Positions 2,485-64,000 of a stretch of DNA of 64,000 nucleotides are shown here, piece by piece (within the stretch, counting starts at the first letter, position 1; each line of letters begins with the position of its first letter). Position numbers and translations under genes: made by a program. The stretch is from Naegleria gruberi. Its lineage: Eukaryota. The stretch lies in the NCBI GenBank assembly GCA_000004985.1, contig GG738908.1. One strand, given 5' to 3'. The notes beneath the pieces were generated by a model. That model was not told the origin of the DNA. It was given only the letters and a program-made list of their open reading frames with translations, and did not search any database.

Positions 2485-3119
2485 TCTCTATATATGTTAG
2501 TTGTATTTGTAGTATTTGTTATTGGTTATTAAATAGAAATGATGAGGATGAGAGAAAGGAGGATGAAGAGTAATAAACCTTCAAGAAGCCTTTTGTAATA
2601 TGTTACTAAGGAATATTGAGGAGTAGGACAACAATCAATAAATATATACACGAGAGAGAGATGAGAATATTTTCTTGAAAATGTTAATGATGCGCAAAAG
2701 CAGTTACTATTGTTGGTTTGATAAATCCTTAAAGGCTTGGATTTTTTTAGAGAGAATTTTTCGCTTTATTTACTGTGTGGTGATGTTGATTAACTTGGAA
2801 CTGAAAATGCCCTTAACAATATTATTCCCTTCTTCTAAGTGAGGCTGGAATGCATATTCTAACACCTCTCAAAAAAATTTATAACCGTTTGATTGAAATG
2901 TCCATAACAGTCACTGTGGTTTTCCTCTCTTACGCTGCTTCCATGTTTATACATTAACAGATGATGAAGGAACAAAATGTTTATCACCTCTCTTAATATG
3001 GATTTATTTCATGGGTGAAATACAACAATTCTAAGAAGGAATCAACTTAAGGTACTATTAATTTTTATAACATAACATCCTTAATGAACCTTCACAAACC
3101 AAATTAAATAGAAATAAGA

Positions 3120-3845: not shown

Positions 3846-3913
3846 TATGCTTAATGGTTCAAAATTCAAACATTCCTTAATTCCTGAACAACCTCAATTT
3901 AGTGTTCATGTAA

Positions 3914-3987
3914 GCCTTCCTAGCTCAGTTGGCAGTAGCGCTGTCCTAGTAAGACAGAGGTCTTGGGTTCGATTCCCAAGGGAGGCA
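3914..3987 (+). tRNA. tRNA-Thr (anticodon AGU)
   Basis: Acceptor GCCTTCC/GGGAGGC, anticodon loop CTAGTAA (anticodon AGT), T-arm TTGGG-TTCGATT-CCCAA, discriminator A. Confidence 0.85.
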
Positions 3988-20159: not shown

Positions 20160-20266
20160 AAAACATGCATAGCACTCTTAATATATTAAATTATTGCTTA
20201 ACATCCAATTTATGTAAACCTCTAGATGTGAATGTTATAACAAGAAACTATTCTTAATGAATGTAA

Positions 20267-20340
20267 GCCGTCATAGCTCAGTTGGATAGAGCACAGGACT
20301 TCTAATCCTGGGGTCGTGGGTTCGAGCCCCATTGTCGGTA
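20267..20340 (+). tRNA. tRNA-Arg (anticodon UCU)
   Basis: Acceptor GCCGTCA/TGTCGGT (one T-T mismatch plus G-U), D-arm GCTC-AGTTGGATA-GAGC, anticodon loop CTTCTAA, T-arm GTGGG-TTCGAGC-CCCAT. Close to human tRNA-Arg-TCT. Confidence 0.8.
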
Positions 20341-20456
20341 AATGTTTTAATTTTTACTCTCAGATTCATGTGGAAAATTCAATCAGGATTACAATAGTAC
20401 AATATGGATTAAGGTGATTTTTGTAGGAGTGTTAAGGTGATCTTCCTTAATGTGCT

Positions 20457-20527
20457 CGTCTCGTGGTGTAATGGTAGCATAGTGGACTTTGAATCCATTG
20501 ACGGAGGTTCGATTCCTCCCGAGACGG
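20457..20527 (+). tRNA. tRNA-Gln (anticodon UUG)
   Basis: Acceptor CGTCTCG/CGAGACG, TGGTGTAATGGT D-arm typical of tRNA-Gln, anticodon loop CTTTGAA, T-arm GGAGG-TTCGATT-CCTCC. Confidence 0.85.
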
Positions 20528-20924
20528 TAAACGTGGCGAGCCATAGAATTTTATTTAATATATTTCATTATAGCTTGATGTACACCCTTTGATAATGGAT
20601 TCGAATGAATAATTGTAAAATCGAGTCGATTCATCGAATTAATTTTGTGAAACAAATAGTAAGGACTGAAATAGGTAATCTGTTGAGCTGGTTATTCAAG
20701 TCAATCACAGTTGTCTGATTATTGGATATCATTAGACCAGGTGTAATTCTCCTCACTGCTAACCAGCTTTCATGAAACTCGTCACAGAGCTTGGTTTCAA
20801 TTTTATGTGTGTTGAATTGATCATCTATTCAATTCTTTCTTATTTCCAGTCTAAAATTATTTCATAAATTATTTACAAAATATTTATTATTACAATTATA
20901 ATATATTATTAATTATTATCTAAA

Positions 20925-51621: not shown

Positions 51622-53274
51622 ATGAAATTTCAAATCAATAAGGAGCAAATACAGCAATACTTTCATCTACCATTGGAAGAGGCTGCTATCAAGTTGGGAT
51701 GTTGCTCCTCTGTTCTGAAGAGAACATGTAGACAATTAGGTATTAAACGATGGCCCTACCGAAGAATGAAAAGCCTCTCAAAACGACAAAATCAACTCCA
51801 ACAACAATTAACAACCCTCCACGATCAATACATGAAGAGTAGGAAACAATTGGAAGATGTTGAAGGAGAGATGGATGTTATTATCAAGGAAGAATTGAGT
51901 GGTATTGCTGAAGGTGCTACTGTCATTATAGATGATGCAAATATTGATGTTGATCCAACACTGGATTATGATCAGAATGATATTATTAATATTAATACTG
52001 CTTCTTCTTCAACTGGTAATCCTACTACTTTTAACTTTAATAACAACTTTGAAATCATGTTGATTCCTTCATCATCAACATCATCAACATCTTCACCACC
52101 TTCAAGTAGTACATTGGCATCATCGTCTTCGGTATCATCTCTTCCTAATCATCATGTACATACATCATCCTCATATGTTTCTCCACAACAACAACAACCA
52201 TCAAAACCTGTTATTTCTCCATCACAACAACATGTTATTAGAGATGTTGAGTTGAACATGCAGCACAACAACAATAGCAACATGGATATGATGATGCCTA
52301 TTCATAATGCGAGTTCTAATTCGTTCACTGCTCCATCCACATCCTTCAATAACAACCTTCATCGTACAATGTGTGAATCCAATAATGGAGATCCAATTTC
52401 AATGACTACTAACATGCATATTTCTCCTCAGCAACAACAAGTAGGTCATCAGCAACATGCTAACAATCTTTGCAATACATCATTACATGAATCATTTGAC
52501 CATGCTTTTGGAAATGTTGTGAATAATAATCAATTTATGCAATCTTCGCATGTTGATGCTAATAAGCACTCATGTAATGGAATATCAAATACAGCATCAT
52601 CAAGTAGTAGTGGATGGAATAATGAAAAATCAGAATTGGATACATCTCAATATAATAATTTGGATAATGAACACTCGTTCGATGCATCTGTACATGAATC
52701 AATTAATACTGCTGATTATACAACGAGAGGGAGAGGAGGTTATTCATTTCCAAATCATAAACATGATTCAAGTAGGTCACCATCATCAAATTATGCCATG
52801 CAACATGTGGAGCCATGTTTTAGACCATTAATTTCAACATTGGATGGAGTGAATGTAAATGCTGCACTAACTAATGATAGAGGAGTGTTAATGTGGTTTT
52901 CTAAGGGGCTAATGGAAACACTCCCATCCTATTTTAATACAAAGGCAGTGAATAAGGATTATACTAAGGATGATACATTTAAAGGATCAACTATTGATGT
53001 ATATGAATCGTTTTATAGAAGAAGAGCCACACATGGAACTATTAGAATGATTCAGTGCTTTTTTGAAAGATATGTAGTGGTGGATAGTCATGGAGTGATG
53101 CTTGATCATTACTCTGCGCATCCATCTGCTGGATCGCATTACATGTGGTATTTGCATGTGAGGAAGGAAACTGATTTTTCTCTCATTTCATCTTATTTCA
53201 ATCCTTCCGATAGAAATAAGGCACTTCAGTTTGGGGTACCTTATACTTTCGAATTGGAGGATGACAACAAGTAG
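51622..53274 (+). CDS. RWP-RK domain transcription factor
   Basis: N-terminal FHLPLEEAAIKLGCCSSVLKRTCRQLGIKRWPYRRMKS (RWPxRK motif) followed by Ser/Asn/Gln-rich low complexity and a conserved C-terminal block (...RMIQCFFERYVVVDSHGVMLDHYSAHPSAG...). Preceded by an unusually C-rich ~600-nt upstream leader. Confidence 0.75.
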   Translation: MKFQINKEQIQQYFHLPLEEAAIKLGCCSSVLKRTCRQLGIKRWPYRRMKSLSKRQNQLQQQLTTLHDQYMKSRKQLEDVEGEMDVIIKEELSGIAEGATVIIDDANIDVDPTLDYDQNDIININTASSSTGNPTTFNFNNNFEIMLIPSSSTSSTSSPPSSSTLASSSSVSSLPNHHVHTSSSYVSPQQQQPSKPVISPSQQHVIRDVELNMQHNNNSNMDMMMPIHNASSNSFTAPSTSFNNNLHRTMCESNNGDPISMTTNMHISPQQQQVGHQQHANNLCNTSLHESFDHAFGNVVNNNQFMQSSHVDANKHSCNGISNTASSSSSGWNNEKSELDTSQYNNLDNEHSFDASVHESINTADYTTRGRGGYSFPNHKHDSSRSPSSNYAMQHVEPCFRPLISTLDGVNVNAALTNDRGVLMWFSKGLMETLPSYFNTKAVNKDYTKDDTFKGSTIDVYESFYRRRATHGTIRMIQCFFERYVVVDSHGVMLDHYSAHPSAGSHYMWYLHVRKETDFSLISSYFNPSDRNKALQFGVPYTFELEDDNK

Positions 53275-57408: not shown

Positions 57409-57535
57409 ATTATTAGAAGAGCTAAGGCCTGGTTTATGATTGGTTTGGTGGTAAAGATTTTATGTTGTTTAGATGTTGTAAAATGAATTAATTTCAAGTA
57501 TTGTTAAATAAAGGTATAATTCAAAATGAATGTAA

Positions 57536-57608
57536 GGGGATGTAGCTCACATGGTAGAGCGCTTCTTTAGCATGGAAGAGGTACGGGGATCGATACCCCG
57601 CATCTCCA
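57536..57608 (+). tRNA. tRNA-Ala (anticodon AGC) with the canonical G3:U70 identity pair
   Basis: Acceptor GGGGATG/CATCTCC (G3-T70 wobble), D-arm GCTC-ACATGGTA-GAGC, anticodon loop TTAGCAT, T-arm CGGGG-ATCGATA-CCCCG, discriminator A. Confidence 0.85.
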
Positions 57609-57685
57609 GCTTACTTTTTCTTTTGTTGGGAGGCTTTACAATAACAATTCCATTTTCCCTAACACGTTAATAATCGAATATGTAT

Positions 57686-59491: not shown

Positions 59492-59686
59492 TACATATCA
59501 CTCCCCAAAAATCTCAATAAAAAATTATTAAGACTTACTTGTTTAATGGCTGAACTTAATAAAAGAATATTAAATAATGAAAAGAAATTTACTTAATTCA
59601 CTCTTACTTCTCTTGGTTTGGATTATTTCATACAAATACTAGATCAATTAACAAGTAGTTAGTGCATCCACATCATTCAGAATAAT

Positions 59687-62017: not shown

Positions 62018-63364
62018 TTATTCATATTGTGGTTCAGTTTCACCTTCAATATCACCATCAACTTGATCATCGACAGTGGCATCTTGGTATTGTTGATATT
62101 CATTAACCAAATCAGTCAAGTTGGATTCAGCTTCAGTGAATTCCATTTCATCCATACCTTGATCAATGTAAGTGTGTAAGAAGGCCTTTCTCTTGTACAT
62201 TTGTTGGAATTGAGTACCAATTCTCTTGAAAACTTCTTGGATAGCAGTTGAGTTACCAATGAAAGTACCAGAAACCTTTTGACCAACTGGAGGAACATCA
62301 CAAACAGATGACTTGATATTGTTTGGAATCCATTCAACAAAGTTTTGAGAATACTTTCTTTGCATTCCCAACATTTGTTCATCAATTTCGTTAGTTGACA
62401 AGTTAAGACCTCTGAAAGTAGCACTGGCAGCCAAATATTTACCCATAGATGGATCACAAGCAGCCATCATATTCTTCTTATTGAACATTTGTGAAGTCAA
62501 TTCAGCAATTGACAAGGCAGAGTATTGTTGAGATGAAGTAGCAGCCAAAGGAGCAGAACCAACAACGAAGAAGTGCAATCTTGGGAATGGAATCAAATTG
62601 ACAGCCAACTTTCTCAAATCAGAGTTCAATTGACCTGGGAATCTCAAGCTTGAAGTAACACCAGACATGACACCAGCAACCAAATTATTCAAATCAGCAA
62701 ATGATGGTTGTGGTAACTTTAAGGTTCTAGTACAAATATCGAACAATGCTTCATTGTCCAAACAGAAAACTTCATCAGCAGATTCAATCAATTGATGCAA
62801 ACTTAAAGTAGCATTGTATGGTTCAACAACAGTTTCAGACATTTTTGGTGATGGCAAAACAGAGAAAGCAGCCAACATTCTATCAGGGAAATCTTCCTTC
62901 AATTTAGATAACAACAAAGTACCCAAACCAGAACCAGTACCACCACCCAATGAGTGAGTCAATTGGAATCCTTGCAAACATTCACAATGTTCAACTTCCT
63001 TTCTCAAAACATCCATAATTTGGTCAGCCAATTCAGCACCTTCAGTATAATGTCCCTTTGCCCAGTTGTTACCAGCTGAACCTTCAGAAGCAATGAAATT
63101 ATCTGGACGGAACAATGTACCACTCTTTGATGATTTAACAGTGTCTAAAACTGATGATTCTAAATCAACCAAGACACTTCTTGGTACGTAACGGTTTCCT
63201 TGGCTTTCAGAGAAGTAGACACCCAAGTTTTCCTTTAAAATTGGATTAGTTTCGACGAATTCACCATCGGCATTTAAACCATGTTCATTACGAATGGTTT
63301 CCCAGAAATGTTGACCAATTTGGTTACCACATTGACCAACGCTGATTGATACGATTTCTCTCAT
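62018..63364 (-). CDS. tubB: beta-tubulin (divergent isotype)
   Basis: [17 protein letters not shown]..., [59 protein letters not shown]..., FPRLHFF, ...[27 protein letters not shown] with an acidic C-terminal tail. Roughly two-thirds identical to canonical beta-tubulins over the full length. Confidence 0.9.
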
Positions 63365-63466
63365 TTCTATTAGATTATTTAGTGTTGTGTTTTTTTTTGT
63401 TGTGAAAATAATTTTTTGGCACCTGGCAGGTTAAATACGCTTGTGTGACACTTTGTGGTTGTAATG

Positions 63467-63531
63467 TTGGCGCTTTTTTGATATTTTTAAAAATGAGCGC
63501 CAAAGTGTTAAACGTTCACAATTGGCGCCAA
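63467..63531 (+). promoter_or_regulatory. cluster of three E2F-like GC-rich motifs (TGTTGGCGC; GCGCCAAAG, the reverse complement of CTTTGGCGC; palindromic TTGGCGCCAA) 100-170 bp upstream of the beta-tubulin ATG
   Basis: The three TTGGCGC cores lie within 65 bp at 63467..63473, 63497..63504 and 63522..63531, in an otherwise AT-rich promoter. Confidence 0.4.
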
Positions 63532-63871
63532 CATGAGACTTGCCTTTTTGCTGGTGTGGGCAACAAATTTCGGTTGAAGTTTGAAGATTGTATCAAACTA
63601 ATCCGTTGATATGCAGTTTTCACAACTGTAAAGAGTGATGGAGGGTTTATTAAAACGTCAAACTGTTAGTTCACAATCTTCACAATAATATTTCAAACTG
63701 ACTCATTTACAAACCCAATAGCATTGAACAAATAAAAGGATTTTGAGTTATATTGCGTGCCCAAAGCGAACAGACATGTTTCATATGTTTTCAATACGCA
63801 GCAACAGGTTTTGAGTTCCCATGAAATTCAAGTATTGTTAAATAAAGGTATAATTGCAAATAAACGTAAGG

Positions 63872-63944
63872 GGAGGTGTAGCTCACATGGTAGAGCGCTT
63901 CTTTAGCATGGAAGAGGTACGGGGATCGATACCCCGCATCTCCA
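63872..63944 (+). tRNA. tRNA-Ala(AGC)-like second copy with an altered acceptor stem (GGAGGTG/CATCTCC gives A3:U70 instead of G3:U70); possibly a pseudogene or a non-alanine-charged variant
   Basis: The body from the D-arm to the 3' end is identical to the gene at 57536..57608. The 5' acceptor strand reads gggGAGgtg versus ggggatg. About 45 bp of shared 5' flank (ttcaagtattgttaaataaaggtataatt) and shared 3' flank (gcttactttttt) show the two belong to a duplicated unit. Confidence 0.6.
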
Positions 63945-64000
63945 GCTTACTTTTTTAACAGCAGGCACTAATTTGACAAATATTAAACGTTTCGTAAAAG

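Follow-up and report, generated by a model that had tools for sequence, protein, structure and literature searches.

A GG insertion in the acceptor strand of a Naegleria gruberi tRNA-Ala(AGC) gene is predicted to replace the G3.U70 pair by A3:U70

Introduction

The G3.U70 pair is the major alanine determinant in all domains of life, and neither insect nor human AlaRS alanylates a tRNA in which it has been replaced by A3-U70 (PMC9976931). In mitochondrial tRNA-Ala the G.U pair has been translocated, to G2.U71 in Drosophila and to G5.U68 in human mitochondria, and the latter pair is used by human mt-AlaRS (PMC9976931). According to Sun et al. 2016, as cited in PMC8583063, eukaryotic AlaRS also tolerates a displaced G4:U69 pair. 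Histidine identity in eukaryotes is determined by G-1 opposite A73 (PMC9976931). At the level of the genes, tRNA loci in animals have elevated mutation rates and variable flanks, and disabling alleles segregate among them (PMC6130373; PMC13010820). For Naegleria gruberi, 924 tDNAs have been reported in the genome (PMC2888827).

Here, we analysed two tRNA-Ala(AGC) genes in a 64-kb window of N. gruberi NEG-M nuclear DNA (the window being the whole stretch of DNA studied, 64,000 nucleotides), and we compared the second gene, whose 5′ acceptor strand carries two extra G residues, with the first gene and with related loci.

Results

The second tRNA-Ala gene differs by a single insertion

The window has a G+C content of 22-35% and densely packed long ORFs, four of whose translations are identical to annotated N. 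gruberi proteins of a 259,034-bp scaffold, and ARAGORN and Rfam identified eight tRNA genes in it, all of eukaryote type. Two of them are the tRNA-Ala(AGC) genes that the original prediction had placed at 57536-57608 (copy 1) and 63872-63944 (copy 2); their Rfam tRNA scores are 53.6 and 53.0 bits, respectively, against a gathering score of 29. The features of the two genes are as follows.

57493..57535 (+), 5′ flank of copy 1, made up of the invariant 28-nt block TTCAAGTATTGTTAAATAAAGGTATAAT at 57493-57520 followed by a variable spacer to GTAA
57536..57608 (+), tRNA-Ala(AGC) copy 1, canonical, with GGGGAUG/CAUCUCC, G3.U70 and A73 (ARAGORN, Rfam, fold)
57609..57619 (+), trailer of copy 1: GCTTAC and T5, a Pol III terminator-like run
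63827..63869 (+), 5′ flank of copy 2, made up of the invariant 28-nt block at 63827-63854 followed by a spacer to GTAA
63870..63944 (+), tRNA-Ala(AGC) copy 2 in its ancestral limits, 75 nt (alignment, leader motif)
63875..63876 (+), 2-bp GG insertion in the 5′ acceptor strand of copy 2 (gapped alignments)
63945..63956 (+), trailer of copy 2: GCTTAC and T6

Pairwise and three-way alignments show that, within the tRNA, copy 2 differs from copy 1 by a single event, GGGGA-TG to GGGGAGGTG. In the gapped alignment, gtaaGGGGA--TGTAGC of copy 1 stands against gtaaGGGGAGGTGTAGC of copy 2, and in a longer view gtaaGGGGA--TGTAGCTCA stands against gtaaGGGGAGGTGTAGCTCA. The other 73 nt of copy 2 carry no substitution, the 3′ strand CATCTCC is unaltered, and the GG is also the sole difference inside the tRNA from the gene on L001, a metagenome contig described below. 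ARAGORN and Rfam call copy 2 as a 73-nt tRNA (63872-63944) in a shifted register, GGAGGUG/CAUCUCC. At the Thr, Arg, Val and first Ala genes of the window, GTAA or ATGTAA adjoins the mature 5′ end; in copy 2, GTAA adjoins GGGGA at 63870, which places the ancestral +1 at this position. The original prediction read the acceptor strand of copy 2 as GGAGGTG instead of GGGGATG. This reading is correct in the register that ARAGORN and thermodynamics prefer, but it is the ungapped view of a GG insertion and does not reflect substitutions. The stem had also been said to pair through compensatory wobble pairs. Since CATCTCC is the same in both copies and the 5′ strand alone was altered, by one insertion, nothing in the stem is compensatory. 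A slippage of TG followed by a U4-to-G change would be a truly compensatory two-step route, and it would produce the same sequence as a single GG insertion.

The most stable fold of copy 2 contains A3:U70

Folds, energies and pair probabilities were obtained with ViennaRNA. The cloverleaf of copy 1 has an energy of -27.1 kcal/mol and the 73-nt form of copy 2 one of -27.4 kcal/mol, and the 75-nt copy 2 in the shifted register, with two unpaired 5′ G residues followed by GGAGGUG/CAUCUCC, reaches -27.1 kcal/mol. The shifted stem gives A3:U70 and G5.U68 with pair probabilities of at least 0.98, and it re-pairs because the strand starts with GGGG and A5 comes opposite U70. A form with a 2-nt bulge that preserves G3.U70 has an energy of -22.2 kcal/mol or worse, which is 4.9-6 kcal/mol worse than the shifted register. 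These values bear out, for the most stable fold, the claim of the original prediction that position 3:70 becomes A:U. The register GGGAGGT with G3, which had also been raised, is mismatched at three of seven pairs by inspection and was rejected. Copy 2 thus has the features of a functional tRNA-Ala in its 7-bp acceptor cloverleaf, AGC anticodon, A73, G1-C72 and G2-C71, and G3.U70 is absent from its stable register.

The maintained pairing had been taken to argue against random decay. If a dinucleotide is inserted after A5, 2 of the 16 possible ones preserve pairing, and over all internal sites 2/84 distinct 2-nt insertions leave all seven pairs in place. That the stem stayed intact is thus modestly lucky; it is the sole point that favours a non-random change, and the odds are low but not compelling. 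With these fractions, and with a canonical gene on L001, the argument is weak.

Outside the mature sequence, the leader GTAA(G) is complementary to the trailer (C)TTAC in both copies (57531-57536 with 57610-57614; 63866-63870 with 63946-63950). The GG insertion extends this helix (GUAAG/CUUAC), and the minimum free energy of the pre-tRNA is -36.2 kcal/mol compared to -31.2 kcal/mol. Judged by these folds, the longer leader-trailer helix might slow end processing of copy 2. Nuclear RNase P measures along the stack of T and acceptor stems to find where to cut, so the 73-nt shifted product is the expected one.

The two copies have a gene-sized unit in common

There are exactly two occurrences of the 28-mer TTCAAGTATTGTTAAATAAAGGTATAAT in the window, one before each tRNA-Ala gene, where chance would give 0, and GCTTACTTTTT in the 3′ flank is identical in both copies. 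The common upstream block (about 29 bp in the original prediction) and the common 3′ flank were thus rightly noted, and the inference that a unit of 150 bp or more had been duplicated was overstated. The sequence common to both copies amounts to about 133-135 bp (57487-57619 and 63821-63955), with an abrupt end on either side. It consists of roughly 48 bp of upstream sequence, the tRNA, GCTTAC and the T-run, so that its limits coincide with those of the gene unit, from the upstream block through the T-run. A larger segmental duplication was considered and rejected, since similarity ends at about -48 (copy 2) or -60 (copy 1, L001) and directly past the T-run. The spacer between the invariant block and GTAA differs among copy 1, copy 2 and L001, with four differences between the spacers of copies 1 and 2. 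No further tRNA-Ala fragments were found in the 64-kb window. From this pattern, the common flanks are best read as promoter-proximal and terminator elements of the tRNA-Ala family, kept alike through constraint or concerted evolution, and not as what is left of a recent segmental duplication of greater length. In copy 2, the A and B box regions, upstream block and T-run are identical to those of copy 1, and they presumably act as promoter elements in Naegleria.

A related locus carries a canonical tRNA gene

The neighbouring tubulin gene served to locate the orthologous locus.

62018..63364 (-), divergent beta-tubulin gene (EFC38385.1), anchor for the orthologous locus

The translation of this ORF is exactly that of N. 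gruberi EFC38385.1. The protein is of a divergent type, with about 65-70% identity to ordinary beta-tubulins, and N. fowleri and N. lovaniensis each have a single protein at 88-89% identity to it. Naegleria has separate divergent mitotic tubulins, to which we presume this one may belong.

Using the tubulin protein, we found L001, an ENA metagenome contig of 2,630 bp (PRJEB11402) that is 98% identical to window positions 62018-64000 over 2 kb. L001 has a tRNA at the same position with the canonical GGGGATG; the variant is thus not conserved in the closest relative of the locus, and on the haplotype of the window the insertion is therefore a recent, derived change. Over the whole 2 kb, 20 substitutions and two indels (17-19 bp) separate L001 from the window, with differences at 1/1347 positions of the tubulin CDS, at 3/386 of the distal intergenic region and at 1/56 downstream of the tRNA. 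L001 could be another Naegleria haplotype or strain, or a recent paralog instead of a strict ortholog. At -60 to -49, L001 and copy 1 both carry AAAATGAATTAA and copy 2 carries other sequence, so copy 2 has also lost the distal edge of the family upstream block.

The divergence between L001 and the window is clustered in about 120 bp 5′ of the tRNA (window 63751-63869 compared with L001 663-790), with 14/83 substitutions and indels of 19 and 17 bp; in the tubulin CDS and the distal intergenic region it is 0.07-0.8%. Mutagenesis associated with transcription at tRNA flanks, or a tract of gene conversion, would fit this cluster.

In N. fowleri, N. lovaniensis and one further metagenome contig, there is no tRNA within 5 kb of the orthologous tubulin gene, and the upstream neighbour is not conserved at these loci. 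The comparison of orthologous loci that the original prediction proposed thus yielded a canonical gene in L001 and, in the two other Naegleria species, loci without a tRNA; the tRNA gene at the copy 2 site is restricted to the N. gruberi lineage. When metagenomes were scanned for the exact N. gruberi Ala(AGC) body, 0 matches were obtained, as did a viral-contig scan for the N. gruberi-type Ala(AGC). We also scanned metagenomes with the looser pattern GGGGA N{0,2} TGTAGCTCACATGGTAGAGCGC, which permits 0-2 extra bases at the insertion site. It returned no GG-type variant, and all 23 matches in 22 loci were canonical; these loci are Ala(TGC/CGC) genes of other, non-Naegleria eukaryotes and are uninformative on the variant. 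A protein search with the neighbour gene past the window end, taken from L001, matched only itself. A search with the ORF neighbouring copy 1 returned the N. gruberi protein and distant homologs from N. lovaniensis and Logan, and since the loci of these homologs carry no tRNA, no ortholog of copy 1 was obtained.

As a separate observation, tRNA-Ala(TGC) genes on metagenome contigs of AT-rich eukaryotes can be grouped by nearly identical 70-nt upstream flanks (L004, L017 and L024; L005 and L009; L010, L014 and L018; L011 and L023; L022 and L025). The members of a group are either paralogous copies or the same locus across samples.

Other tRNA genes and upstream motifs in the window

Eight tRNA genes per 64 kb is above the genome-average density implied by 924 tDNAs. 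Among them, tRNA-Arg(TCT) (20267-20340) and tRNA-Gln(TTG) (20456-20528) lie on the (+) strand with 115 bp between them. The ORF at 51622-53274 (+), whose translation exactly matches an N. gruberi protein annotated only as 'predicted protein', encodes 550 amino acids with an RWP-RK domain at the N-terminus (Pfam E = 4.8e-23) and is a putative transcription factor of the plant/protist type.

The tRNA genes other than the Ala pair have their own upstream motifs. Five of the six (Glu, Thr, Arg, Gln and Lys) are preceded by YCTTAATD, 4-42 nt upstream and in sense orientation, at the following sites.

3079-3086 (+), YCTTAATD
3875-3882 (+), YCTTAATD
20252-20259 (+), YCTTAATD
20445-20452 (+), YCTTAATD
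59526-59533 (-), YCTTAATD

In the whole window the motif has 28 matches compared to 34 expected, so there is no overall enrichment, and 5/28 precede tRNA genes; we regard it as a candidate Pol III element located upstream of tRNA genes in Naegleria. Most tRNA genes, namely those at 3914, 20267, 40327(-), 57536, 59491(-) and 63870, have ATGTAA or GTAA directly before the mature 5′ end, at -6 to -1, and this may be a conserved initiation or leader motif.

Discussion

We consider copy 2 to be a transcribed but uncharged young pseudogene, or a mildly deleterious allele, that results from a recent GG insertion, and we give this reading a probability of about 0.6. According to this reading, GG would have been inserted recently into the 5′ acceptor strand of one member of a large, redundant tRNA-Ala(AGC) family. 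The gene is probably still transcribed by Pol III, and RNase P would trim the transcript to the 73-nt tRNA that starts at 63872. This tRNA would not be charged by cytosolic AlaRS with G3.U70 gone; the loss of charging known for A3-U70 would extend, by analogy, to the Naegleria enzyme. The crippled copy would be tolerated alongside many other Ala(AGC) genes, and copy 2 can be called redundant because N. gruberi has about 924 tRNA genes. Consistent with a pseudogene, the lesion lies in a required element of the stable fold and is not conserved in relatives. Several points speak against it: the stem is intact even though just 2/84 internal insertions would keep it; there is one lesion only in the tRNA body and the core upstream block, with 0 other tRNA changes, so that decay is not demonstrated; eukaryotic AlaRS can accept a shifted G4:U69 pair (PMC8583063); and L001 might be a paralog. 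If copy 2 is a pseudogene, it would be a very young one. The observation that started this work is thus real, although it was mis-described, and its interpretation is partly right: of the two outcomes proposed, the uncharged pseudogene is the most likely, since the stable fold lacks G3:U70 and A3-U70 abolishes insect and human alanylation.

An error of sequencing or assembly in the reference scaffold, with a canonical tRNA-Ala(AGC) as the real gene, is an unlikely source of the GG. The only other sequence of the locus, L001, carries GGGGATG, the change falls in a G-rich stretch, and no second variant-bearing sequence was found, the 23 matches in 22 loci of the looser scan being canonical. However, those matches come from other organisms and are silent on NEG-M, and L001 is clearly another haplotype or strain (20 substitutions, two 17-19 bp indels), for which real differences are expected. 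In addition, a clean 2-base insertion is, from general knowledge, atypical as a consensus error in a multi-fold Sanger assembly. We also find it quite improbable that the variant still serves as an alanine tRNA, whether through a fraction of molecules with the GG bulged out or through a Naegleria AlaRS that accepts the displaced G5.U68. The bulged fold preserves G1-C72, G2-C71, G3.U70, G4-C69 and A5-U68 as in the wild type, AlaRS is established to charge short acceptor helices, and the promoter elements are all intact; but this fold is 4.9 kcal/mol less stable, has a negligible pair probability and would need an RNase P cut 2 nt further upstream. For the displaced pair, tRNAs with G4:U69 are charged by eukaryotic AlaRS (PMC8583063), and human mt-AlaRS uses G5.U68 (PMC9976931). 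The only enzyme known to use G5.U68 in this way is a mitochondrial one that co-evolved with its tRNA, and the cytosolic AlaRS of insects and humans does not charge a tRNA with A3-U70 (PMC9976931).

A selected new function, in the form of a changed amino-acid identity or of a deliberately uncharged regulatory tRNA with a stem selected to pair, for example through the TG slippage and U4-to-G route, is the least probable of the explanations and hardly to be expected. Besides AlaRS, the synthetases that ignore the anticodon, SerRS and LeuRS, need a long variable arm, which copy 2 lacks, and the altered identity suggested in the original prediction is unsupported. The fully paired stem, which 2/84 internal 2-nt insertions permit, and the intact remainder of the gene and upstream block would suit selection, and one extra G left by RNase P would put G-1 opposite A73, the histidine determinants (PMC9976931). 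HisRS also uses the anticodon, however, and the variant is not conserved: the nearest relative is canonical, and more distant Naegleria have no gene at the locus. The 3′ strand is unchanged, and a single GG insertion accounts for everything. It is likewise very improbable that copy 2 is expressed as a stable tRNA that AlaRS charges via G5.U68 or that is partly histidylated through G-1. If true, the former would mean that a cytosolic AlaRS tolerates a two-pair shift, and the latter, partial histidylation after imprecise RNase P cleavage, would bring His to GCN alanine codons.

The pseudogene or mildly deleterious allele that we favour matters little by itself; it is a further instance, in a heterolobosean, of an event that is most likely ordinary for a large tRNA gene family. 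It illustrates how a single indel in an acceptor strand rich in G can remove the alanine identity pair and still leave a perfect cloverleaf. Since generic tRNA finders score copy 2 as good, tRNA counts for N. gruberi may include dead copies. Should the variant be charged after all, cytosolic AlaRS would be known to tolerate a wider range of displaced G.U pairs. For Heterolobosea, the upstream motifs and the 5′ divergence hot spot offer a possible start for work on the promoters used by Pol III and on how tRNA genes mutate.

Compared to canonical eukaryotic tRNA-Ala(AGC/IGC), copy 2 has the same cloverleaf, AGC anticodon, A73, G1-C72 and G2-C71, and it differs in having two extra G and, in the stable fold, A3:U70 instead of G3.U70. 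The T-loop AUCGAUA and the 5′ half GGGGAUGUAGCUCA are typical of eukaryotic tRNA-Ala, of which copy 1 is a full member, and the same 27-nt 5′ half occurs in 22 metagenomic Ala genes. In its shifted register, copy 2 has its sole acceptor wobble at 5:68, the position of the G.U pair in human mt-tRNA-Ala. In contrast to the mitochondrial type, in which the translocated G.U is fixed, conserved and matched by a co-evolved mitochondrial AlaRS, copy 2 is a nuclear, cytosolic-type gene, and its change is private to one copy and one haplotype when compared with copy 1 and L001. The G4:U69 tRNAs resemble copy 2 in that a G.U displaced from 3:70 is usable by eukaryotic AlaRS; they differ from copy 2 in a displacement of one pair instead of two and in being non-Ala tRNAs, and the enzymes tested on them are from animals only (PMC8583063).

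The closest likeness is to disabled tRNA alleles (Thornlow et al. 2018, PMC6130373; Bell et al. 2026, PMC13010820), which have in common with copy 2 a single private lesion in a large family, fast-evolving flanks around an otherwise conserved body, and redundancy (about 924 tDNAs in the case of copy 2). The divergence cluster 5′ of copy 2 would fit, by analogy, the mutation picture of animal tRNA genes. Both studies are on animals, and no comparable case is known from Naegleria. Unlike the disabled animal alleles, copy 2 carries an indel that leaves a perfect cloverleaf, which generic models score normally (53.0 compared to 53.6 bits).
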